Origin: an uncultured Alphaproteobacteria bacterium
GTDB taxonomy: Bacteria > Pseudomonadota > Alphaproteobacteria > Rs-D84
Length of the DNA: 32,000 bases
Direction: 5' to 3'
Assembly (NCBI GenBank): GCA_963931495.1
Contig: OZ007020.1
Location: 210,001-242,000 of the forward strand
The notes below the pieces were generated by a model, which had not been told where the DNA came from, ran no database searches, and worked only from the letters and a program-made list of their open reading frames with translations. The translations under genes were made by a program, and so were the position numbers. How positions within the stretch are numbered: the stretch's first letter is position 1; the number at the start of each line of letters is the position of its first letter. Shown piece after piece: positions 1 to 24,724 of the stretch.

Positions 1-288
1 TTTGTTTTCTAAATCTGCAATTGGGCGGCCCGTGATTAAAAAATCCCAAACTGTGATATCACTGTTGGGTAATTCCAGTTGCTGGGGCAGGTATGCAATG
101 TTTGAATTATTTGTGTCTATATACCCGGCGTCTGGTTTAATTTGACCAAGTATTATTTTGAATAATGTTGTTTTTCCGGCGCCGTTTACGCCAACAATAC
201 CAACCTTGTCATGCGGCAACAGGCTGAATTCAGCATTATCGTAAATGACGTTTGACCCAAATGATAAAGATAAATTTATTGCTTTCAT
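1..288 (-). CDS. ABC-F family ATP-binding protein, N-terminal part (gene runs off the window start)
   Basis: Reverse-strand translation from the ATG at complement 286-288 reads MKAINLSLSFGSNVIYDNAEFSLLPHDKVGIVGVNGAGKTTLFKIILGQIKPDAGY... It has a Walker A P-loop GVNGAGKTT. It is absent from the ORF track because it is open at the window edge. Confidence 0.75.
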   Translation of the reverse strand, partial: MKAINLSLSFGSNVIYDNAEFSLLPHDKVGIVGVNGAGKTTLFKIILGQIKPDAGYIDTNNSNIAYLPQQLELPNSDITVWDFLITGRPIADLENK

Positions 289-334
289 ATTCTGGATATA
301 TTGTATAATAATATTGACAATCAAAGGGGAAACA

Positions 335-682
335 ATGAAAAAATTATTATTTGTCTGTTTTGGATTAATTTTGGCGGCGTGTGGGAAAAACGCTGATATT
401 GAAGGTAAATGGGTTGAACCAATACCAAATATGCCCGGAATGAAACAAGGATTCAGTCTAGAGCAGGGTGGTGTCGCAGAATCTATTAATATGGCAACGT
501 TACAGTATGATACATGGCAGGTTGATGGAAATATTCTGATTTTATCTGGGAAAAGTATTGGAAATCACCAAGTGATTGATTTTACCGAAGAATATGAAAT
601 TGCCAGCGTTGATGACGATACGTTGATATTAAAGAATGCTGGTGTGGTTCGTGAATTTACACGATGCACAGATTGCGAATAA
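335..682 (+). CDS. Small lipoprotein, function unknown
   Basis: This is the internal Met of ORF 245..682. MKKLLFVCFGLILAACGK has a signal peptide plus lipobox L-A-A-C. A GGGGA Shine-Dalgarno-like sequence lies just upstream. Confidence 0.7.
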   Translation: MKKLLFVCFGLILAACGKNADIEGKWVEPIPNMPGMKQGFSLEQGGVAESINMATLQYDTWQVDGNILILSGKSIGNHQVIDFTEEYEIASVDDDTLILKNAGVVREFTRCTDCE

Positions 683-724
683 ATAATCATTTGGGCTGCA
701 TCCGGGGTATTACATCAGAACAAT

Positions 725-4779: not shown

Positions 4780-4831
4780 TAATACAATATATTTTTATAT
4801 AAAAACGCCGTTCTGTTGTACTTTGTTGTAC
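4703..4831. repeat. Cluster of six 7-bp GTACAAC/GTTGTAC repeats (iteron-like, inverted arrangement)
   Basis: GTTGTAC occurs at 4703-4709, 4815-4821 and 4825-4831. GTACAAC occurs at 4714-4720, 4744-4750 and 4756-4762. Arms 4744-4762 and 4815-4831 form a ~20-bp imperfect inverted repeat around an AT-rich spacer. Confidence 0.6.
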
Positions 4832-5265
4832 TATTTTTGTGCTTTTTCATATTCGGGATTTGGAATATATTTTGGTTGTATATATTTTATTTTTTGAACA
4901 GTTCTTTTGCTTCCAAACGAATTTGTATATTTATAAGTACCGTCTTTTATAAAACAGTGTTCTGGTATGCTCATTACTTTATCGTCATACATTGTATTTA
5001 GGTAATCGTCATGTATTTTTACAAAAAATAATATTTCTGGGTCTGATTTTATGAACTGGTTTTCTGATATATAGTCTAATAAATAAACTAATATACCGTC
5101 GTTTGTTACAGAAACTACCTGCATTCCATCTGGAAACATTTCGCAGTCCGGATTTTTTATTAATTCTGGTACCGGTGCTCCAAAAGCTAGATAATATAAG
5201 TCTGATATACTGTAACTACAAGCACTTACAAATAAAGATATTAAAAGAATAAAAAAGTTTCTCAT
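4831..5265 (-). CDS. Island-encoded lipoprotein, function unknown
   Basis: MRNFFILLISLFVSACSYS has a signal peptide plus lipobox V-S-A-C. An AGGAG RBS (complement of 5272-5276) lies upstream. The gene is preceded by structured-leader copy C. Confidence 0.7.
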   Translation of the reverse strand: MRNFFILLISLFVSACSYSISDLYYLAFGAPVPELIKNPDCEMFPDGMQVVSVTNDGILVYLLDYISENQFIKSDPEILFFVKIHDDYLNTMYDDKVMSIPEHCFIKDGTYKYTNSFGSKRTVQKIKYIQPKYIPNPEYEKAQK

Positions 5266-5276
5266 ACTATTCTCCT

Positions 5277-5476
5277 AAATAAATACAGTCGCTGAAAGAG
5301 CGACTGGGAGTTGGTAACTACAATACGATAGTGCGCCATATTGGCACAAAGGCTTATTTTGACGCCTCCCAGCCATGAGCTGTGAAGCGTGCAAAGTTTC
5401 GTCTTACACAGACGCGTATTGAAGGGTTACCACACCCGTCGAAATTTACTCTACAATAAAAAACAAATAAAATCAA
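5277..5476 (-). promoter_or_regulatory. Structured RNA leader/sRNA, copy C (promoter + ~165-nt conserved structure + intrinsic terminator)
   Basis: On the minus strand: TTGATT (5476-5471), 17-nt spacer, TAGAGT (5453-5448). Conserved blocks follow: ACCCTTCAATACGCGTCT-loop-AGACGAAA. The long helix CTGGGAG (5372-5366) pairs with CTCCCAG (5310-5304). The terminator is GTCGCTC-TTTC-AGCGAC (5303-5288) plus a T-rich tail. It is alignable by eye to 15614-15819 and 24377-24587. Confidence 0.6.
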
Positions 5477-5497: not shown

Positions 5498-7165
5498 ATG
5501 ATATACCATGAAAGCATTAGAAATAGGCTTAAAATGGAAGATTTAGAACAGTTTTTAAATAATCTTGGTTGTGAAGATGAACATACTGAATTTAAAGAAG
5601 CAAAAAATAACTTCAGTATATTGGGTGACTTTAATAAAAGAAATTGTATTTATGCTTATAGCGTTGCTATCGGAAACGAAGGCGGGGGATGTCTTGTTTT
5701 TGGAATTGATGATAAAAAACGTGTTGTAGGAACAAATTTTCCAAAAGACTCTTTTGTTTCCGTCAGAGAAAAGATTTATGATAAAACGAAGCAAAGATTA
5801 AAAATAGAAGAGAAGCTTTTTAATGGTTCAAGAATTGTTGTTATAAAAATTCCGAGCAGACCTTTTGGTGAATATTTTTCGTTTTATGAAGTGCCTTTAA
5901 TGAGAGTCGGACAAGAGTTAAGAACTATGAGTAGGGAGAGAATGCAAGAGATTCTTAATGAAACTAGGGTGGATTGGACAGGGCAAGTTGCAGAAAATGC
6001 TTCTGTTGATGATATTGATGAAAATGCTATATTGAAGGCTAAAGAAAATTTTGCAACAAAATTTCCAAATATTAGCAAAGAAGAAATAGACTCTTGGGAT
6101 GTTAAAGTTTTTTTGGCTAAAGCTAAATTATTAAATAATGGTAAGATAACAAATGCCGCTTTGATTTTGTTAGGTAAAGAAGAGTCTAAGATTTTGCTAC
6201 AACCCCATGTTGCTGAAATAACATGGGCGTTGAAAACAGATACAGGCGATACTCTGGATTATAAGCATTTTGCGCCACCGTTCATAATAGCCATAGATGA
6301 AGTTTTTAAGAAAATCAGAAATTTAAAATATAGATATATGAAAACTTCTGGTTCTTTATTCCCTGAAGAAACGGACCAATATAATTCTTATGTGATAAGA
6401 GAAGCGTTGAATAATTGTATTGCACATCAGGATTATTCAAAATGCGCTAGAATAACGGTTGTTGAGAAATCAGATAGTTTGGTTTTTACGAATGAAGGCA
6501 CTTTTATACCAAAGACAATAAAAGCTGTTATAGATACAGATATGCCACCACGTTGTTATAGGAATAAGTTTTTAGCGGAAGCTATGGTAAATCTGAATAT
6601 GATAGATACAGTTGGAAGTGGTATTAAACGTATGTTTGCAGAACAAAGGGCGCGTTTGTTCCCTTTGCCGAGTTATGATTTTTCAGATGATAAAGTAAAA
6701 GTAGAGATTTTTGGTAAAATTATAGATGTTAATTATGCTAGATTGTTGGCTAAAAACACAGATTTGTCTTTAGACGATATAATTTTATTAGACGCCGTTC
6801 AGAAGAAAAAAACGATAGAAGCTGATGCTGTTAGACGTTTAAGGAAGAAGGGGTATATAGAAGGAAGGTCGCCAAATATTTATATTTCCGCTATGGTTGC
6901 CGAAAAAACAGGCGCTGTAGGCGAATATTTAAATACAAAAGGTTTAGATAATAATTATTATAGAAAGTTAATATTGGATTATTTAAAAGTTAGTTCTGCT
7001 AAAAGACGTGAATTAGAAGCTTTTATATTACCAAAATTATCTAGTTTGTTAACTGATACCCAAAAAAAGAAAAAGCTTGAAAATATTCTGAATAGAATGA
7101 GATTAAAAGGGCTTATTGTAAATAGTGGAAACGGTAAACAATCTGTGTGGAGTTTGAAAAAATAG
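5498..7165 (+). CDS. AlbA_2 (Schlafen-like) DNA-binding domain / HATPase_c_4 ATPase-like protein, often annotated RecG-like transcriptional regulator
   Basis: The N-terminus EDEHTEFKEAKNNF...GGGCLVFGIDDKKRVVG is AlbA_2-like. The middle region REALNNCIAHQDYSKCARITVVEKSDSLVFTNEGTFIP is HATPase_c_4-like. The C-terminus is wHTH-like. The true start may be the Met at 5534 (MEDLEQF...). Confidence 0.65.
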   Translation: MIYHESIRNRLKMEDLEQFLNNLGCEDEHTEFKEAKNNFSILGDFNKRNCIYAYSVAIGNEGGGCLVFGIDDKKRVVGTNFPKDSFVSVREKIYDKTKQRLKIEEKLFNGSRIVVIKIPSRPFGEYFSFYEVPLMRVGQELRTMSRERMQEILNETRVDWTGQVAENASVDDIDENAILKAKENFATKFPNISKEEIDSWDVKVFLAKAKLLNNGKITNAALILLGKEESKILLQPHVAEITWALKTDTGDTLDYKHFAPPFIIAIDEVFKKIRNLKYRYMKTSGSLFPEETDQYNSYVIREALNNCIAHQDYSKCARITVVEKSDSLVFTNEGTFIPKTIKAVIDTDMPPRCYRNKFLAEAMVNLNMIDTVGSGIKRMFAEQRARLFPLPSYDFSDDKVKVEIFGKIIDVNYARLLAKNTDLSLDDIILLDAVQKKKTIEADAVRRLRKKGYIEGRSPNIYISAMVAEKTGAVGEYLNTKGLDNNYYRKLILDYLKVSSAKRRELEAFILPKLSSLLTDTQKKKKLENILNRMRLKGLIVNSGNGKQSVWSLKK

Positions 7166-12884: not shown

Positions 12885-14522
12885 ATGAATGATAAAGAAA
12901 AAGATGTTTTGAACAAGGATTATGGGGATTTAAAGCCGTCAATTCCGGCTGGGTTGGAAAATGCAGAAAACAAGGATATTGTGGATTATCTGTTTTCAAA
13001 TGGCAATCGTTTGTTGACCGCAACCGGGGCAGAGCAAGAATTACCCAAAGATACCCAGGGGCTGGTTGCGTATTTTTCAGGTGGTGAAATTATTGTTTCA
13101 CGGACACATCGCTATGACGGGCGTGTGTTGGCGTTTTTAGATTTATTGAAAAAACGCGGTCGCCCAATGCGAATACCGTTTTATTCTGATTTGGGTTTGG
13201 TTTCCAGTATTTACAAGGCATATGAAAGTCGTCTGGGCGGAATTTCGCGTTCACGCCAGGATTATGACAATCAAATGCAAAAAGATTTTGTTGATATAAT
13301 TGCCAAGGCGGCCGCACAAAAGGTGTCGGATATTCATATAGAAGTTGCCGATCAAACAACAATATTCTTTCGTATTGATGGCAGTATGCAGCCGGTGTTG
13401 GAATATAATGCAGGTTGGGGGGAATCTTTTGTTCGTGCGGCGTTTGCATCGTCTGATATGTCAAATGCAAACTATGCGCAAAATGAATACCAGGCCGCCC
13501 AAAAAGATGGGCGCACACCGTTGCGCGGGACCAAGGATTTATACCTGCCGCGCGGAATTTTAAGTATTCGTATGCAATTTAATCCAATCGCGTTCGGCAG
13601 TCGCTATGTCGTAATGCGATTGTTGTATGACAACCCATCCGAAGGTATAAAAACAGAGCAAGAATTTGGTGAATACGAGCAAAAATTATTAATGCGATTA
13701 CGTTCTTTCCCAACTGGATTAGTTATTGTGGCCGGACCAACCAGTTCTGGGAAATCAACAACATTGGTGCGCAATATGTCATTGATGTTAAAAGAGCATC
13801 ATTATGAAATTAATATGATTACAGTGGAAGATCCGGTTGAACAAAAAATATTTGGCGCGCACCAGATGCCGGTCGTTAATACCACAAATGAAGAACAGCG
13901 CGAAGAAAAATATACCGAAGCCTTGGCCGCCGCGTTACGCAGTGACCCAGATACACTGATGGTTGGTGAAATTCGTACGTTGGCCGCCGCGCAATTGACA
14001 GTGCGTGGGGCGTTATCAGGCCATAATGTGTGGACCACACTGCACGCGAATTCGGCAATGGCGGCGTTAACACGTTTGTTGGATTTGGGTATAGAAGCGT
14101 TTAAGTTAAAAGAAGAAACACTGATGCGTGGGTTGATTTCTATGCGCTTGTTCAAACAATTGTGTCCGTATTGTCGGGAAAGACTGATTGACCACCCGGA
14201 AAATCCAGCGTATCGTCGTGTTATGGATGCGTTTGGGGAATTAGGACTGCGCCAAGTGTATATTCGTGGCGCAGGATGTGAAGAATGCAAGGGAACCGGA
14301 ACATTGGGGCGTATCAAGGCCGGTGAAATTATAATTACAAACAGTGAATTTTTACGCATGGCATTGGCGGGTAATACCGATGGCGCAGTTAAGTACTGGT
14401 TGGAAGAAATGGATGGGCGTACGTTAAAAGAAGCCGCAACGTCATTAATGTTACAGGGGATAATCGGTGTGGATGAATTAGAACGCTGGGTCGGATTGCT
14501 GGATCGGCCGGGGGTATATTGA
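12885..14522 (+). CDS. GspE/PilB-family secretion ATPase (R64 PilQ-like)
   Basis: Motifs present: Walker A GPTSSGKST, Asp box ITVEDPVE, Walker B DTLMVGEIR, His box GHNVWTTLHAN, and a tetracysteine Zn motif CPYC...CEEC. Confidence 0.9.
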   Translation: MNDKEKDVLNKDYGDLKPSIPAGLENAENKDIVDYLFSNGNRLLTATGAEQELPKDTQGLVAYFSGGEIIVSRTHRYDGRVLAFLDLLKKRGRPMRIPFYSDLGLVSSIYKAYESRLGGISRSRQDYDNQMQKDFVDIIAKAAAQKVSDIHIEVADQTTIFFRIDGSMQPVLEYNAGWGESFVRAAFASSDMSNANYAQNEYQAAQKDGRTPLRGTKDLYLPRGILSIRMQFNPIAFGSRYVVMRLLYDNPSEGIKTEQEFGEYEQKLLMRLRSFPTGLVIVAGPTSSGKSTTLVRNMSLMLKEHHYEINMITVEDPVEQKIFGAHQMPVVNTTNEEQREEKYTEALAAALRSDPDTLMVGEIRTLAAAQLTVRGALSGHNVWTTLHANSAMAALTRLLDLGIEAFKLKEETLMRGLISMRLFKQLCPYCRERLIDHPENPAYRRVMDAFGELGLRQVYIRGAGCEECKGTGTLGRIKAGEIIITNSEFLRMALAGNTDGAVKYWLEEMDGRTLKEAATSLMLQGIIGVDELERWVGLLDRPGVY

Positions 14523-14523
14523 T

Positions 14524-15594
14524 ATGACAAAATTAGATTTACTGTATGCGAAACTGGTTTTCAGATTAAATACAGAAAAACGTATGGCCACCGCACGCAA
14601 GTTGGCGTCGCTGTTACGTAATGATTTTACATTGATGGATGCATTAAATCGTCTGGAAATGATTGAATCGCATGGCGGAACAAAGCCAGATGAACCATTT
14701 GCAATTGTTATGCGTGAATGGCAGAAAAACTTGGAACGTGGTATGAGTTTTTCGGATGCAACACGCGGATGGGTGCCACCAGATGAAACATTGTTGGTCA
14801 CGTCTGGGAATTTGTCTGATTTGGTTGTCGCGCTGGAAAATGTCAGTCGCGTTGTTGATGGAACCCAACGAATAAAGCGGGCAATGACCAGTGCCATTGC
14901 GTATCCATTGTTTTTGTTGATATTAACGTTTGGTATAATAATGCTGGTTGGGGTATATTTGGTGCCCCCGTTGGCCGAAATTGCGGGTGATAATATTATA
15001 TGGCGCGGAATGGCGGCGTCATTAATATGGATATCTGAATTTTCAATAAAATATTGGCCGGTTGTTTTAGGGATATTTATTGCGCTGGTTGCGATTGTGT
15101 GGATAAGTTTACCAAACTGGTCGGGTCGGCTGCGCGCGAAATTTGATAAATTGCCCCCGTGGAATGTGTATAAAATTCAAATGTCTGTGGGTTGGTTAAT
15201 GAGTTTGTCGGCCATGGTCGCCGCCGGAATTACAATCCCAGATGCAATGCGTATGTTGGCGGACAGTTCAAATAAATATTTACGCAGTATTTTGGATGAA
15301 ACACTGCACTATATTGCAAATGGTGATAATTTGGGTGTGGCGCTGAATAATGCTGGGCGGGGTTTCCCGAATACAGAAATTATTGGGGATTTGGCGATAT
15401 ATGCCGATATGAATGGTTTTGATGAAAATCTGGGGCGGGTGGCAAACGATTATTTGGAAGAATCTGTGCGTAAAATGGAATCTGTGTCATCGGCGTTGAA
15501 CAGTTTTGGAATATTGTTGGTATCGGCGATTATTGCGTGGGTTGTACTGGGGACGTTCCAGATGCAAGATCAGATTACCGCCACACTCAGCTAG
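14524..15594 (+). CDS. GspF/PilC-family inner-membrane platform protein (R64 PilR-like)
   Basis: It starts 1 nt after the ATPase stop codon. It has duplicated T2SSF-like segments and three hydrophobic helices (for example AIAYPLFLLILTFGIIMLVGVYLVPPL). Confidence 0.85.
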   Translation: MTKLDLLYAKLVFRLNTEKRMATARKLASLLRNDFTLMDALNRLEMIESHGGTKPDEPFAIVMREWQKNLERGMSFSDATRGWVPPDETLLVTSGNLSDLVVALENVSRVVDGTQRIKRAMTSAIAYPLFLLILTFGIIMLVGVYLVPPLAEIAGDNIIWRGMAASLIWISEFSIKYWPVVLGIFIALVAIVWISLPNWSGRLRAKFDKLPPWNVYKIQMSVGWLMSLSAMVAAGITIPDAMRMLADSSNKYLRSILDETLHYIANGDNLGVALNNAGRGFPNTEIIGDLAIYADMNGFDENLGRVANDYLEESVRKMESVSSALNSFGILLVSAIIAWVVLGTFQMQDQITATLS

Positions 15595-15613: not shown

Positions 15614-15819
15614 TTGTTTTTTTATGAATATATAGGTATCATATATATGACATTGGTGTATTGCCGATGTTGGGCTTCATCACCCTTCGTATATGCGTCT
15701 TGCTGACGATAAAAGCTCCTGCAATAGGCAGGAGTGCAATGCCATATATTGAAACCATTGCGCTATTTACATATACGAATAGTGATGAAGCTCCTGCCGC
15801 CAAATTATTGGCGGCTTTT
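15614..15819 (+). promoter_or_regulatory. Structured RNA leader/sRNA, copy A (promoter + conserved structure + intrinsic terminator)
   Basis: TTGTTT (15614-15619), 17-nt spacer, TATCAT (15637-15642). The conserved block starts at 15671. Hairpin CGTC-ttgct-GACG follows. CTCCTGC (15716-15722) pairs with GCAGGAG (15728-15734). The alternative long helix is GGCAGGAG (15727-15734) with CTCCTGCC (15791-15798). The terminator is GCCGCCAA-ATTA-TTGGCGGC (15796-15815) plus TTTT. RBS AGGAA and the ATG at 15837 follow. Confidence 0.65.
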
Positions 15820-15836
15820 GATGATAGGAATAATGT

Positions 15837-18053
15837 ATGTGTAAATGGCGTGGTATATTTTTTGTGTTGGTTGTTTTGTTGGTTAATATTTCGCAGTATG
15901 CGTATTGCGCCACCCAGCGCCCCAGCCGTTCGGTGGTAAAGTCTGGGACGACAACGGCCAGAAATGCGGCCAGTACAATAAATGATACTTCGTCACGTGT
16001 TGTCGCGCGCAGTGCCACCACTGCCACGGTGCAAAAGAATGCAAACAGTGGTACGCATGTGGCGACAAGAACAGTTCAAAATCGTGCAAAAACACGCGCG
16101 GTGGTGGCACGTAATACAACAAATACAAACACGGTGGAAAAGACGACTGTATCATCGGTGATTGATGCAATGACCGAACAAAAAAATATGACCGATTTTT
16201 GCAAGGCGCAATATACGGCATGTATGGATAATTTCTGTAATGTTTTGGATGACAACCAGGGGCGTTGCAGTTGCAGTGCGAATTTAAGCAATTATGCCGA
16301 GACTGAGGCAGCGTTAAAAGAAGCCACGGAACGTCTGCAAGACGTTGCGCAACAAATTCAATACATTGGACTGACGGCGGACCAGGTTGAATCACTGTTT
16401 ACCGAAACAGCGGCCGAAGCAGAATTATCTGGGTCAACGGATAACAGTCAATTAATGAACAGTCTGGAATCCATACGTGACATGATAATAGATGTTGAAT
16501 CTGGTCGTGCGCGTTCAAATGCATCCAGTGGATTAAGTTTTGATTTAAGTGGTCTGTTGGACTTTTCTTTGGACAGTTCTGGATTTGATTTAGCGAGTTT
16601 GTTTGGTAATTCTGGTGTTGACACCAGCAGTATCAGCAACCAGCGTGGTGAAGATTTGTATGAAACGGCGGCTGCGCGTTGCAAGGCGTCTGTATTGAAC
16701 AGTTGTCAATCCCAGGGTGTTGATATATCAGTGATAACGAATTCGTATGATTTGGAAATAGACAAGGCGTGTATTGTATACGAACGGTCACTGACGGATG
16801 CGAACGACCAGATGTCTGCGACGGTTCGCAATGCGACATCGTTACTGCAGCGTGCGCGATTAATGGTTGCGGAACAAAAGAATGCGTATGATTTACGAGA
16901 ATGTGTGACCGAACTGGATTCATGTATGCAAGACGAATTTGTATGTGGTCGTGATTATGAATACTGTCTGGACCCAACCGGTAAGTATATCGTAAATGGC
17001 GATGTTGTCCAGGTTGTTAACCAAGATACAATGATGACAAAGTTTTGGGGTGCGTCTGAACCCAGTGGTGACCGTAATTTTATTACTGCGCATATGAAAG
17101 AAGGGGTCATAGAATTATTGTTGAACAAAATAGGTGACCCGACCGAAAATACTGGTTTATGTAATGCGGTTCTGAACAGGTGTCAACAACAATGGGAAAA
17201 CGAACAATCTGGTAAATATGATACGCTGAACCAGGTATCTTTGGCATATCTGGAAATGATTGTCCCAAGAATGGCAAAGAAACAGAAAGAAATGATTGCT
17301 GATTTTATGGCAAATTGTAAAGACAGCGTTTATTCGTGTATGAGCAAGACCAGGGTGTTGGGCAATGTTGTTCCGCGTCCGACGCAGTCTGTAATCAGTT
17401 TCTTGGGGCCCAGAATAAACGCATGTCGCACGGTCATAGATTCGTGTACAACAATATTAAACATAAGTACAAAAGAACTGTTGGCAGATTGGATACCGCA
17501 GAATGTTTGCCGTGAATATGATTTTGATAATGATGTGTGTTCGTTAAGTGCATTGATGGAACAAAATTGCCTTAATGCGGGTAATTTGTGGATTGATGGT
17601 GCGTGTCAAGACAGTACCGCGTATTATACAAAACTGGCAAGCACGTATGAAGAATTGCCCAGTTATTGTTGGCCTGGTGTTCCTGTTGCTGATTGGCCCG
17701 GGGAAGAGGGGCAGTGGTATGATTGTATTGATAGATGTAATGAACTTAGGGACTTGTTGAAAGATGAGCCGAAACCAATTCCGCCATACGAATACGGTTA
17801 CACCTGGGGCCCATCCCCTGGGAATCACCCTCAATGCACAGGAATCGGATGGTTGTCGGTAAGTGTAATAGATAATGCAGAGTTCTTTTGTTTTGCAAAA
17901 GGATGCTATTTCAATGGTACAACCAGATGTATCAGTGGGTATACCCGGATTTTTGACCCGTGTGGTTTAGGTTTACAAACTGCCGATAATTTTATATGCT
18001 GTCCACCAGATAAAACAGACGAATGTGTACAGCAATACTGTGCAGATGAATAA
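15837..18053 (+). CDS. Large secreted cysteine-rich protein (738 aa), function unknown
   Basis: It has an N-terminal signal peptide (MCKWRGIFFVLVVLLVNISQYAYC/A). An Arg/Thr/Asn-rich low-complexity region follows, with VVAR/ATR quasi-repeats. I counted about 36 Cys from the track translation. C-x6-C pairs recur (CKAQYTAC, CVTELDSC, CNAVLNRC, CKDSVYSC, CRTVIDSC). Confidence 0.75.
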   Translation: MCKWRGIFFVLVVLLVNISQYAYCATQRPSRSVVKSGTTTARNAASTINDTSSRVVARSATTATVQKNANSGTHVATRTVQNRAKTRAVVARNTTNTNTVEKTTVSSVIDAMTEQKNMTDFCKAQYTACMDNFCNVLDDNQGRCSCSANLSNYAETEAALKEATERLQDVAQQIQYIGLTADQVESLFTETAAEAELSGSTDNSQLMNSLESIRDMIIDVESGRARSNASSGLSFDLSGLLDFSLDSSGFDLASLFGNSGVDTSSISNQRGEDLYETAAARCKASVLNSCQSQGVDISVITNSYDLEIDKACIVYERSLTDANDQMSATVRNATSLLQRARLMVAEQKNAYDLRECVTELDSCMQDEFVCGRDYEYCLDPTGKYIVNGDVVQVVNQDTMMTKFWGASEPSGDRNFITAHMKEGVIELLLNKIGDPTENTGLCNAVLNRCQQQWENEQSGKYDTLNQVSLAYLEMIVPRMAKKQKEMIADFMANCKDSVYSCMSKTRVLGNVVPRPTQSVISFLGPRINACRTVIDSCTTILNISTKELLADWIPQNVCREYDFDNDVCSLSALMEQNCLNAGNLWIDGACQDSTAYYTKLASTYEELPSYCWPGVPVADWPGEEGQWYDCIDRCNELRDLLKDEPKPIPPYEYGYTWGPSPGNHPQCTGIGWLSVSVIDNAEFFCFAKGCYFNGTTRCISGYTRIFDPCGLGLQTADNFICCPPDKTDECVQQYCADE

Positions 18054-22800: not shown

Positions 22801-23358
22801 TTAAAAGTTATATGTGAATCCGGCACCGTAAAACGCGTATGAATTATTTTCGTCGGCCGTGTTCGCGTTTGAAAAATGTTGAATGAATAATTCCAGTGCC
22901 CATCGGTCATTTATTTTATATCCACCCATTAATTTGAACTGGAACAATAATTTTGCACCCAGACGTTCGTTTTGTTGTGCCTGTAACCCGACGCCAATAC
23001 CCGTGGCAAAGTACCATTTTTCATTATGGAACAGCGCGATATCTTCGGATAAAAATATCATCGGAATTGTGAATTTTTTCCAATCCCATCCATACTTTTC
23101 ACCCCATCCAATCGTTTGGCCAATATTAATGGATTGACGTGCCGGTAATTTGAAAAATGTTGTCGGTTGCGAATATTGAAAGTGCACAAATGTAAACGGA
23201 ACCCATTGTGTTGGTGGGGGTATAATAAAACCACTGTTTACCCCAGCGCCAAGATGCAACGCAAACTGATTATCATAATTGCCCGTAAATGGGTTGTCTG
23301 ATGCGTGCGCGCACATGGCAAAAAACAGCGAAAAAATTGCAAATGCGACCTTTTTCAT
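22801..23358 (-). CDS. Outer-membrane beta-barrel acyloxyacyl hydrolase, PagL-like lipid A deacylase
   Basis: It has a signal peptide MKKVAFAIFSLFFAMCAHA and alternating beta-strand pattern. The C-terminus is aromatic (FTYNF). An HFSNA motif resembles the PagL His/Ser catalytic motif. Confidence 0.55.
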   Translation of the reverse strand: MKKVAFAIFSLFFAMCAHASDNPFTGNYDNQFALHLGAGVNSGFIIPPPTQWVPFTFVHFQYSQPTTFFKLPARQSINIGQTIGWGEKYGWDWKKFTIPMIFLSEDIALFHNEKWYFATGIGVGLQAQQNERLGAKLLFQFKLMGGYKINDRWALELFIQHFSNANTADENNSYAFYGAGFTYNF

Positions 23359-23438: not shown

Positions 23439-24356
23439 TCAATCGTTATACAGTCCTGTTTCACGGGCAACGCGCCACCAGTGGTCCGAAAATATCGGGC
23501 GACGGTCCGGCGTATGCCATGGTTTAAGCCAGTTGGAATAATGCATAACAACCAGATTATATTTCAAATCGTCAATTTCATATTCACTGTGCGCGCGGAA
23601 TATCCATTTACCCAGCATTGTTTGAAAATTATATTTTAATGGTAAAAATACTATGCGGCCACGCAATGAATAGTTTAATAAATCCTGGTCAGGATTTTTA
23701 TAGCGCTTTATTTGTGATATGCGCAGCCATTTGTCATAGATTTTTTCAGTACGAATTCGTTTCAAATTCATAACCAGAAATCCAGAATTTACATAACCGT
23801 TCGGATAATCGCGTACCGCACCTAATATGTTTTTCCCCATGTCCATGCGATCCAATTCAATCAGGTCATCAAAAAATAGTGTATCTATGTCGGCATAGAT
23901 TACTTTATCAACATCTGGTAACAGTTTTGGCAGCCCCAGTCGCCACCAAACTGCTGCGGGCCAATTGCAACGATATGAATTGTCAAAATCATTCAGTGCG
24001 GTTAAAAATATCACGCGTGATTTTGTGCCATGCGTCATTTTTGATACTGTGCGACGGTGGGCGGTCGGCACCCCGTCATCAACAACGCAATATATGTCGT
24101 AATCACACCGATTTTCTGATGCCATAACCAGCGATTTTATGGAAACACATGCCTGTTTATATCCGTTATCATTAAAGCAAAACGCAACCGAAATCCGATT
24201 TTCATATTTTTTCATCGGTAACCTGGGGCGGGGTGTGGTGGATAATATATTATGAAATCTGATTTTGTCGCGAATTTGCCGACGATTTGTTTTGGTCCAC
24301 CCGAATACAGATGCAACAGTTGCAATTCGTTCACGCTGTTTCCAATTTATACGCAT
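23439..24356 (-). CDS. Glycosyltransferase family 8 (LPS core glycosyltransferase-like)
   Basis: GT8 hallmarks are present: a DxD region YADIDTLFFDD, NSGFLVMNL and DQDLLN. The ATG at complement 24354-24356 is preceded by an AGGGGG RBS and leader copy B. An alternative start is MKKYENR at 24215. Confidence 0.8.
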   Translation of the reverse strand: MRINWKQRERIATVASVFGWTKTNRRQIRDKIRFHNILSTTPRPRLPMKKYENRISVAFCFNDNGYKQACVSIKSLVMASENRCDYDIYCVVDDGVPTAHRRTVSKMTHGTKSRVIFLTALNDFDNSYRCNWPAAVWWRLGLPKLLPDVDKVIYADIDTLFFDDLIELDRMDMGKNILGAVRDYPNGYVNSGFLVMNLKRIRTEKIYDKWLRISQIKRYKNPDQDLLNYSLRGRIVFLPLKYNFQTMLGKWIFRAHSEYEIDDLKYNLVVMHYSNWLKPWHTPDRRPIFSDHWWRVARETGLYND

Positions 24357-24376
24357 ACAGGCCCCCTGATGTTGAA

Positions 24377-24587
24377 TAAAAAGGCCGTCGTTTTTATAAA
24401 GACGGCAGGAGTTTCAACACTATTGTATGCGTAATAGCGCACAGCTTTCGGTATATAACAGTGCACTCCTGCCGTTATAGGGCAGGTGTTTTACGTCCGT
24501 GCAGACGCGCATACAATGGGTGTTGAATCCCAGTATCAGAACCCCTGATACAATTCCTATGATAAAATTGTGTGCGAAAAAAATCAA
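24377..24587 (-). promoter_or_regulatory. Structured RNA leader/sRNA, copy B (promoter + conserved structure + intrinsic terminator)
   Basis: On the minus strand: TTGATT (24587-24582), 17-nt spacer, TATCAT (24564-24559). The conserved block starts TGGGATTCAACACCC (24532-24518). Hairpin CGTC-tgcacg-GACG follows. CCTGCC (24486-24481) pairs with GGCAGG. The long helix is GGCAGGAG (24473-24466) with CTCCTGCC (24411-24404). The terminator is GCCGTC-loop-GACGGC (24406-24384) plus a T-run (24382-24377). Confidence 0.65.
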
Positions 24588-24609
24588 ATTAAAAGCGCGT
24601 ATTTGTTCC

Positions 24610-24637
24610 TTGCATTTAATAAAATCTTTGATATAAT
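24610..24637 (+). promoter_or_regulatory. Sigma70-type promoter of tRNA(CAU)
   Basis: TTGCAT (24610-24615), 16-nt spacer, TATAAT (24632-24637). The -10 ends 10 nt upstream of the tRNA. Confidence 0.65.
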
Positions 24638-24647
24638 GCGGGGCATT

Positions 24648-24724
24648 GGCGGGATAGCTCAGCTGGTTAGAGCAGTGGAATCATAATCCACGTGTCGGGG
24701 GTTCAAGTCCCTCTCCCGCTACCA
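24648..24724 (+). tRNA. tRNA with CAU anticodon (elongator tRNA-Met or lysidine-modified tRNA-Ile2; not resolvable by eye)
   Basis: GGCGGGATAGCTCAGCTGGTTAGAGCAGTGGAATCATAATCCACGTGTCGGGGGTTCAAGTCCCTCTCCCGCTACCA is 77 nt and folds as a cloverleaf. The anticodon loop is ATCATAA. CCA is encoded. Position 1-72 is a G-U pair. Confidence 0.85.

Follow-up and report, generated by a model that had tools for sequence, protein, structure and literature searches.

The leader upstream of the GT8 gene

In the window, by which we mean the whole 32,000-nucleotide stretch of DNA analysed here, the minus strand between 24200 and 24800 opens with a sigma-70-like promoter and a 5' hairpin. Then come roughly 125 nt of structured sequence and a GC-rich hairpin that runs into CTTTTTATT, and finally an RBS with an ATG. 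The last two belong to a GT8 glycosyltransferase gene (23439-24367 (-); RBS AGGGGG at 24367-24362, ATG at 24356, 305 aa; Pfam PF01501, E = 7e-30), which is accompanied by an ORF coding for a PagL-like lipid A deacylase (22801-23358 (-); Pfam PF09411, E = 4e-10) that is probably co-transcribed with it. The leader RNA upstream of the GT8 gene (24372-24560 (-)) is hereafter referred to as copy B, since two relatives, copies A and C, are found in the same window. A preliminary description of this DNA had favored the longer of the possible GT8 starts; the orthologues, which are 302-307 aa in length, align over at least 98% coverage and have the same N-terminus, support this choice.

A consensus scan recovered the copy B promoter (24559-24587 (-)) as a -35 TTGATT (24587-24582), a 17-nt spacer and a -10 TATCAT (24564-24559), the latter two being those reported in the preliminary description. 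Judging from its sequence, this promoter would provide the transcription start site of the leader, and the 5'-terminal hairpin P0 (GTATCAG-GGGTT-CTGATAC, 24533-24551 (-)) lies at approximately this predicted start. It is followed by the four-way-junction core (24409-24531 (-)), which was delineated using RNAfold z-scores, RNAalifold and pair counts. The core comprises the closing stem P1 (24531-24508 with 24431-24409), P2 (24507-24494), the joining segment J2/3 (24493-24487), P3 (24488-24466), P4 (24465-24436) and J4/1 (24435-24432), all on the minus strand. The intrinsic terminator (24375-24406 (-)) is formed by GCCGTC (24406-24401), an 11-nt loop and GACGGC (24389-24384), succeeded by a C and TTTTTATT (24382-24375). 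It is predicted by RNAfold and was missed by a dedicated terminator scan on account of its 11-nt loop. The RBS and ATG of the GT8 gene follow about 20 nt downstream of the U-run.

Two short segments of copy B are central to what follows. The 3' arm of P3, GGCAGGAG (24466-24473 (-)), is a shared strand, for which duplex energies and pair counts indicate two partners: the P3 5' arm (24486-24481) and a tail, CUCCUGCC (24404-24411 (-)), which would be the 3' strand of a putative antiterminator. The complementarity of arm and tail in copy B reaches 11 bp (24475-24465 with 24412-24402), and the last three nucleotides of the tail (GCC, 24406-24404) are the first three of the terminator stem. A 3-nt overlap of the terminator with the long helix had been described earlier; the overlap exists, but its partner is the tail that pairs with the P3 3' arm and not P1. 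On the opposite strand, P3 together with the A-rich J2/3 (24468-24486 (+), and 15716-15734 (-) in copy A) resembles a terminator, with a hairpin and then a T-run; no gene runs into this antisense site and it is thus probably incidental.

Divergent from copy B lies a tRNA(CAT) gene (24648-24721 (+)). A conserved ATGCAAG block upstream of the promoters of copy B and its closest relatives (B-type copies; ~24600-24640) was considered as a component of the RNA and set aside, as it is not part of the transcript; it is most simply read as the -35 element (TTGCAT on the plus strand, with TATAAT after it) of the promoter that serves the divergent tRNA(CAT) gene.

Related copies, their common fold and its covariation

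Copy A (15641-15827 (+); P3 3' arm 15727-15734, tail 15791-15798, terminator 15796-15815) precedes an ORF (15837-18053 (+)) coding for a Cys-rich secreted protein of 738 aa. A blastn comparison of the reverse complement of 24357-24620 with the window matched a single other place, positions 15671-15799 on the plus strand, with 75% identity over 134 columns (E = 2e-16), and a covariance model scores copies B and A at 180 and 175 bits, respectively; the by-eye alignment of the two in the preliminary description is therewith upheld. So are several of its details: the loops of the hairpins CGTC-TGCACG-GACG (B) and CGTC-TTGCT-GACG (A) differ as stated, and the helix GCAATG:CATTGC of A is matched in B by GCACTG:CTGTGC, an A-T to C-G compensatory change with one added U-U mismatch. 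The -10 hexamer and 17-nt spacer of copy B recur in copy A, as had been claimed, but the -35 of the latter, TTGTTT, is a weak one that the scan scores below its threshold. In contrast, the statement that the two terminators are completely different does not hold: the basal GCCG...CGGC is common to both because the GCC is part of the conserved tail, and only the upper stem and loop differ. As for the surroundings of copy A, the 738-aa protein starts with a signal peptide, is rich in Thr, Ser and Asn in its N-terminal region and contains many cysteines; its cluster includes members of 867-879 aa. Genes for a T2SSE (T2SS/T4P-type ATPase) and a T2SSF (platform) protein (12885-15594 (+)) end shortly before copy A. 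In locus L038, which lacks both copy A and the 738-aa gene, this gene pair flanks the region as well.

A diverged third member, copy C (5276-5462 (-)), was found with the covariance model R1, built from the alignment A1 described below, at 30.5 bits and an E-value of about 2e-7. Its layout is that of A and B: a 5' GGG (5437-5435), a P3 3' arm GGCTGGGAG (5374-5366), a tail CTCCCAGTC (5310-5302) and a terminator (5306-5286), which was detected by the terminator scan. An AGGAGA RBS and a 144-aa lipoprotein-like ORF (4831-5265 (-); N-terminus MRNFFILLISLFVSAC) follow, and a putative promoter (TTGATT-17-TAGAGT) scores below the scan threshold. Divergently oriented with respect to copy C is a gene for a 555-aa protein (5498-7165 (+)) with Schlafen AlbA_2 and HATPase_c_4 domains. 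A filters-off scan of the window with R1 returned no copies beyond A, B and C.

All copies can be folded into a common architecture with a 5' hairpin, a long interrupted P1 of about 20 bp, a four-way junction with P2, P3 and P4, and a separate terminator hairpin; the z-scores of the folds against dinucleotide shuffles are -5.7 for B, -7.3 for A and -5.1 for C. To extend this set, a pattern scan was run over one genome per GTDB species, which yielded at least 30 loci with a search pattern that fixed the sequence of P3. Twelve of 30 pattern loci proved by blastn to be true full-length homologues (72-95% identity), all of them from uncultured Alphaproteobacteria or MAGs labeled 'Rickettsiales'. 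Altogether, about 20 homologues of the leader are now at hand, from MAGs of Candidatus Enterousia and related Rs-D84 gut Alphaproteobacteria; the 90% cluster of the GT8 protein likewise includes a protein named from Candidatus Enterousia avistercoris. Members of Candidatus Enterousia and of its order Rs-D84 live in the gut, have not been cultured and possess reduced genomes, about 0.75-1.0 Mb in size (PMC12306168).

RNAalifold applied to A1, a MAFFT alignment of 14 sequences that was not fitted to any structure, recovers the fold obtained from single copies. In this alignment, 95.0% of the cells are paired as against 29-52% with slid partners, and 21 of the 53 pairs show changes on both sides as against 1-6 in the slid controls; none of 500 shuffles reaches the observed values. 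The covariation is located in P0 (6 of its 7 pairs), P1, P4 and the terminator (3 of 6 pairs), with a single covarying pair in P2. P3 is invariant in A1 (GGCAGGAG/CUCCUGCC in the first 12 homologues), which is uninformative because the search pattern imposed its sequence. A second alignment, A3, which includes the diverged copies and is biased towards the model because it was fitted to the covariance model, has 96.3% of its cells paired and 43 of 53 pairs covarying, among them 5 of 6 in the terminator helix. While the loops of P2 and P3 vary freely in sequence and length, the unpaired positions in J2/3 (UAAA), J4/1 (UAUU), the P4 loop (AUAUAUUGAAA) and the CC/A internal loop of P1 are conserved.

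As a control for the bias of the pattern, GT8 orthologues were picked by protein, independently of the RNA, and their DNA was then checked for the leader. It was found upstream of GT8 in L033 (62% GT8 identity, 204 bits) and L038 (55%, 177 bits), which also have a tRNA-GT8-PagL-ung-gyrB neighborhood in common, and in a diverged form in L034 (52%, 27 bits). It was absent upstream of GT8 in L035, L036, L037, L039 and L040, where GT8 identity is 53% or less and the neighborhoods are non-syntenic. A pattern scan of metagenomes that was independent of P3 gave one JGI match, L032, with three variants of the leader, two different ones of which stand in tandem (264-450 (-) and 478-702 (-)) before a gene for an XRE/HTH_3 regulator. 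In sum, copy B is homologous to copies A and C, has their fold and a terminator, and is coupled to the ORF downstream of it. The preliminary description had ascribed the similarity of A and B to selection on the RNA fold rather than to a recent duplication; two copies are insufficient for such a conclusion, which is now carried by the covariation across the roughly 20 homologues.

Coupling to downstream genes and an alternative helix

A terminator is present in every copy, and an ORF with an RBS begins 7-22 nt after the element in 15 of the 16 catalogued copies, consistent with the earlier proposal of a cis-regulatory leader with a promoter and terminator upstream of GT8. Promoter scans at copies A, B and C found no second promoter on the sense strand. 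The downstream genes comprise GT8 with PagL, a pair also kept in L033 and L038; Cys-rich secreted proteins of 738 and 746 aa; the 144-aa lipoprotein-like protein; secreted proteins of 297 and 407 aa; a 96-aa ORF; and the XRE regulator. Their common theme is the cell surface, with no metabolite indicated, and the tRNA-leader-GT8 arrangement of the B-type copies is orthologous and syntenic in 11 genomes. Together these contexts indicate that the leader acts in cis and controls a regulon in which cell-surface genes prevail. Neither the 738-aa protein encoded after copy A nor the 144-aa one after copy C has a relative in Pfam, NCBIfam or the PDB, and the two hence offer no clue to the signal. The attachment of leader to gene is not fixed: an A-type leader in L033 (17456-17562 (-)), cut by the end of the contig, precedes the 96-aa ORF instead of a 738-aa gene, so that one leader subtype is attached to different genes across species. 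The homologue of the upstream tandem copy of L032 in the related genome L010 (5154-5385 (-)) has no gene downstream on its strand, suggesting an orphan copy or a remnant, and the leader may, given this copy, have an additional role in trans.

The P3 3' arm of copies A and B, GGCAGGAG, is complementary both to the P3 5' arm and to the tail CUCCUGCC on the 3' side of P1. In the diverged copies the P3 sequence is different, and each comes with a tail to match, giving five sequence variants of arm and tail in all: the above pair in A and B; GGCUGGGAG with CUCCCAGUC in C; GGUUGGAGG with CCUCCAACC in L032b and L033A; GGGGGUG with CACCCC in L032c and L010b; and GGUCGGGA with UCCCGACC in L034. The duplex energies computed with RNAduplex range from -15 to -21 kcal/mol for an arm with its own tail (mean -18.3), as against -9.9 +/- 3.0 kcal/mol for cross pairs; the best partner of each tail is its own P3 arm, and shuffled tails reach the energy of the own pair in at most 2.4% of trials. 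On the model-fitted A3, the alternative helix is paired in 97.6% of cells with 4 of 7 pairs changed on both sides (0-1 in slid controls), a covariation that amounts to about five independent variants. Read at the sequence level, this matching of each arm to its own tail is the signature of a terminator/antiterminator switch; the helix had gone unremarked in the preliminary description. Further, distinct variants coexist in one genome, as with A and B versus C in the window and the three variants of L032, which speaks for pairing within the molecule and against a common trans factor recognizing the sequence.

The tail shares 2-5 nt with the 5' arm of the terminator, in the basal part of the stem beside the U-run. 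Since the basal stem pairs near the U-run matter most for intrinsic termination, and the tail covers these, termination should fail once the tail is paired with the P3 arm. The 5' GGG can close P1 by pairing with the beginning of the tail, or alternatively form a small local hairpin with an invariant CCC (GAG/CUC in L032b). As in the expression platforms of riboswitches, the alternative helix overlaps the terminator and shows covariation between its strands, and the 5'-UTR domain is conserved and supported by covariation (95-96% of cells paired). Each of the two conformations of the switch has left its mark in the covariation.

Based on the above, we propose that the GT8(-PagL) transcript carries copy B as its 5' leader and that this leader belongs to a family of cis-acting attenuators that are off by default and are turned on by an effector, a reading to which we assign a probability of about 70%. 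The family would consist of riboswitch-like leaders of about 170-190 nt, seen so far in Candidatus Enterousia and related Rs-D84 gut Alphaproteobacteria. Briefly, we advance the following plausible mechanism. In the OFF fold, P1 would enclose the four-way junction with P2, P3 and P4, and the separate terminator would halt transcription about 20 nt before the start codon. In the ON fold, the 3' arm of P3 would leave its 5' partner and pair with the tail just 3' of P1, thereby removing the bottom 2-5 bp of the terminator stem and allowing RNA polymerase to read through into the gene. The P3 5' arm and P1 would thus act as the anti-antiterminator, the P3 3' arm with the tail as the antiterminator, and the last hairpin as the terminator. 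The choice between the two states might be made by a small molecule, an ion or a factor acting on the conserved junction or on an alternative fold, with J2/3 (UAAA), J4/1 (UAUU), the P4 loop and the CC/A loop of P1 as the candidate effector site. Envelope stress, host contact and metal or nucleotide pools, brought up as signals in the preliminary description, are guesses. We infer that transcription begins at the predicted promoter, that the terminator is functional, that switching occurs and that the signal acts on the junction or an alternative fold.

The predicted energetics bear on this proposal in more than one way. By prediction, an ON fold free of pseudoknots is less stable than the full OFF fold by 12-20 kcal/mol; it is because thermodynamics favors the junction-plus-terminator fold that we propose an attenuator that is off by default. 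By rough numbers, the local balance between the outer P1 plus P3 and the antiterminator lies on the OFF side by 1-5 kcal/mol in copy B, the B-type copies, L032b and L034, and by 11-14 kcal/mol in copies A and C. The smaller gap in the B-type copies could, on these model energies, be within reach of a ligand or factor, and the inner part of P1 could persist in the ON state as a pseudoknot, a contribution that is not scored in the energies. That said, P1 with its approximately 20 bp is far beyond the typical P1 of riboswitches, so that spontaneous switching looks hard, and two other features count against a switch: the small overlap of antiterminator and terminator (2-5 nt), and the mix of downstream genes, which points to no single metabolite.

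The same stability could be accommodated by a static 5'-UTR structure that does not switch, namely an element for mRNA stability or processing, with a leaky terminator setting a low basal expression. The OFF fold is predicted to form unaided, P0 at the predicted 5' end could conceivably protect that end, and RNase III cuts long double-stranded stems, for which about 20 bp suffice as a substrate, so that the modeled P1 would be long enough. What such a structure leaves unexplained is why, in five variants, the tail repeats the P3 5' arm of the same element and extends into the terminator, and why unpaired nucleotides of the junction and loops are conserved. We accordingly regard it as improbable, though it is the best placed of the alternatives.

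Slightly less probable still is a family of trans-acting sRNAs, each with its own promoter and Rho-independent terminator and with CUCC motifs serving as anti-Shine-Dalgarno seeds, whose position upstream of genes would then reflect synteny and read-through. The promoter and terminator, the length of about 170 nt, the CUCCU-type motifs and the L010 copy that lacks a gene on its strand are all in keeping with this, and terminated riboswitch leaders acting in trans have a precedent in SreA/SreB of Listeria. Against it, the closely spaced ORFs with an RBS belong to unrelated genes and leave neither room for nor sign of a separate promoter; the leader hence does not look like a transcription unit independent of the downstream ORF, as a trans-acting sRNA would be. 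Moreover, paralogues within a genome have different CUCC segments, which covary with an internal partner, unlike a seed for shared targets.

The P3 3' arm also harbors an SD-like AGGAG, with an AUG 4 nt downstream and a 13-codon ORF (MPYIENIALLRIR), which would allow attenuation by a leader peptide, the position of the ribosome deciding the fate of the terminator. In the B-type copies and L015, an SD with an NUG-initiated ORF of 12-13 codons ending at a conserved UAG is indeed present. But the start is CUG in copy B and GUG or UUG in others, and is absent in L011 and copy C; the length and stop of the ORF vary (12, 13, 27 and 66 codons, with 27-66 in the A-type copies), and L032b, L032c and L034 have no homologous ORF. 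Changes in the P4 stem keep the pairing and are non-synonymous for the peptide (IA to TA, IT, NP and CA), and the SD is base-paired in the OFF and ON folds alike. We therefore consider this reading very unlikely and reject it as a family-wide mechanism, the ORF being confined to the closely related subfamily of A, B and L015. Finally, a dispersed repeat or mobile element of the REP or MITE type, or a chance similarity, which the presence of three copies in 32 kb might bring to mind, is refuted for practical purposes by a similarity far beyond chance (E = 2e-16; 175-180 bits), by the unvarying placement in the sense direction just before an ORF, together with a promoter and terminator, by the synteny of the B-type copies in 11 genomes, by compensatory substitutions among copies that are at most 75% identical, and by the lack of matches in phage and plasmid collections.

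Likeness to known leaders and possible significance

At the gathering threshold of Rfam 15, only tRNAs pass in the window and seven homologous loci, and permissive Rfam scans of A, B, C and L032 gave nothing credible. The best candidate of the latter, SgrS (RF00534), was rejected: it scores 22.2 bits against a gathering threshold of 37 with most of the model deleted, copy A has no SgrS match, and only the terminator hairpin with its U-run and a few flanking bases align to the leader, which is therefore not a relative. Searches of the literature turned up no earlier description, and no such motif is mentioned in papers on Enterousia or in recent large-scale surveys for novel ncRNAs of bacteria.

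Among described systems, the terminating riboswitches with a four-way junction, e.g., SAM-I, the yybP-ykoY Mn2+ riboswitch and NiCo/czcD, resemble the leader in their location in the 5' UTR, conserved unpaired junction nucleotides and variable peripheral loops, as well as in a terminator directly downstream, a mutually exclusive alternative helix, several copies per genome forming a regulon, and tandem copies. The leader departs from them in having no match, by sequence or structure, to any Rfam model, a P1 of about 20 bp versus 4-8 bp, the P3 3' arm instead of the P1 3' strand as the antiterminator strand, and genes that suggest no metabolite. The logic of anti-antiterminator, antiterminator and terminator is likewise that of the PyrR binding loop of the pyr operon and of T-box leaders: a hairpin, here P3, sequesters the 5' strand of the antiterminator, and the antiterminator shares nucleotides with the 5' arm of the terminator. 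As in T-boxes, the terminator state is the more stable one, and the effector must favor read-through. Unlike these, the leader shows no PyrR-box, T-box sequence or specifier loop, and precedes genes for envelope and secreted proteins instead of pyrimidine or aminoacyl-tRNA genes; a search of copies A and B with the Rfam T-box gave no match at E-values up to 10, and the downstream genes are unrelated to those of T-boxes. By analogy, then, the leader appears to work like a terminating riboswitch or an attenuator of the PyrR/T-box type while belonging to no described family.

A further parallel is offered by the M-box (ykoK) Mg2+ riboswitch and the Salmonella mgtA leader, which also are large and have a compact fold that favors termination. 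The low-Mg2+ (PhoPQ) regulons of enterobacteria include lipid A remodeling genes such as pagL, and the PagL-like gene in the copy B operon would be a counterpart to this. Nevertheless, the leader has no Rfam M-box match and a different architecture, and cation sensing is pure speculation. More generally, the leader might represent a new class of riboswitch, in which the four-way junction directly senses an envelope-relevant signal (e.g., a divalent cation or a nucleotide second messenger) and coordinates LPS remodeling by GT8 and PagL with a surface and secreted regulon; we offer this narrower version of the attenuator only tentatively and consider it the less likely outcome. If true, it would provide for the control of a regulon in uncultured gut Alphaproteobacteria of roughly 0.9 Mb with few protein regulators.

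Almost nothing is known of gene regulation in Enterousia and the Rs-D84 order. Should the attenuator hold up, a multi-copy RNA switch before LPS-modifying and secreted genes would be a first handle on the control of their surface, and maybe a principal one. What RNA biology would gain is an orphan class that is well supported, with both conformations in the covariation record and an unusual architecture, combining a very long P1 with the arm of an internal hairpin as the antiterminator strand. The principle of regulation is a classical one; what is new is the RNA family together with its architecture and regulon. The narrow phylogenetic range limits the general impact. With respect to GT8 itself, one of the loci without the leader, L037 (an 8.7-kb contig of Logan SRR27833621), codes for two adjacent GT8 paralogues that are 44% identical to the GT8 of the window and lie among phage-like genes (terminase, head-tail connector); these may be a case of phage-borne LPS modification.
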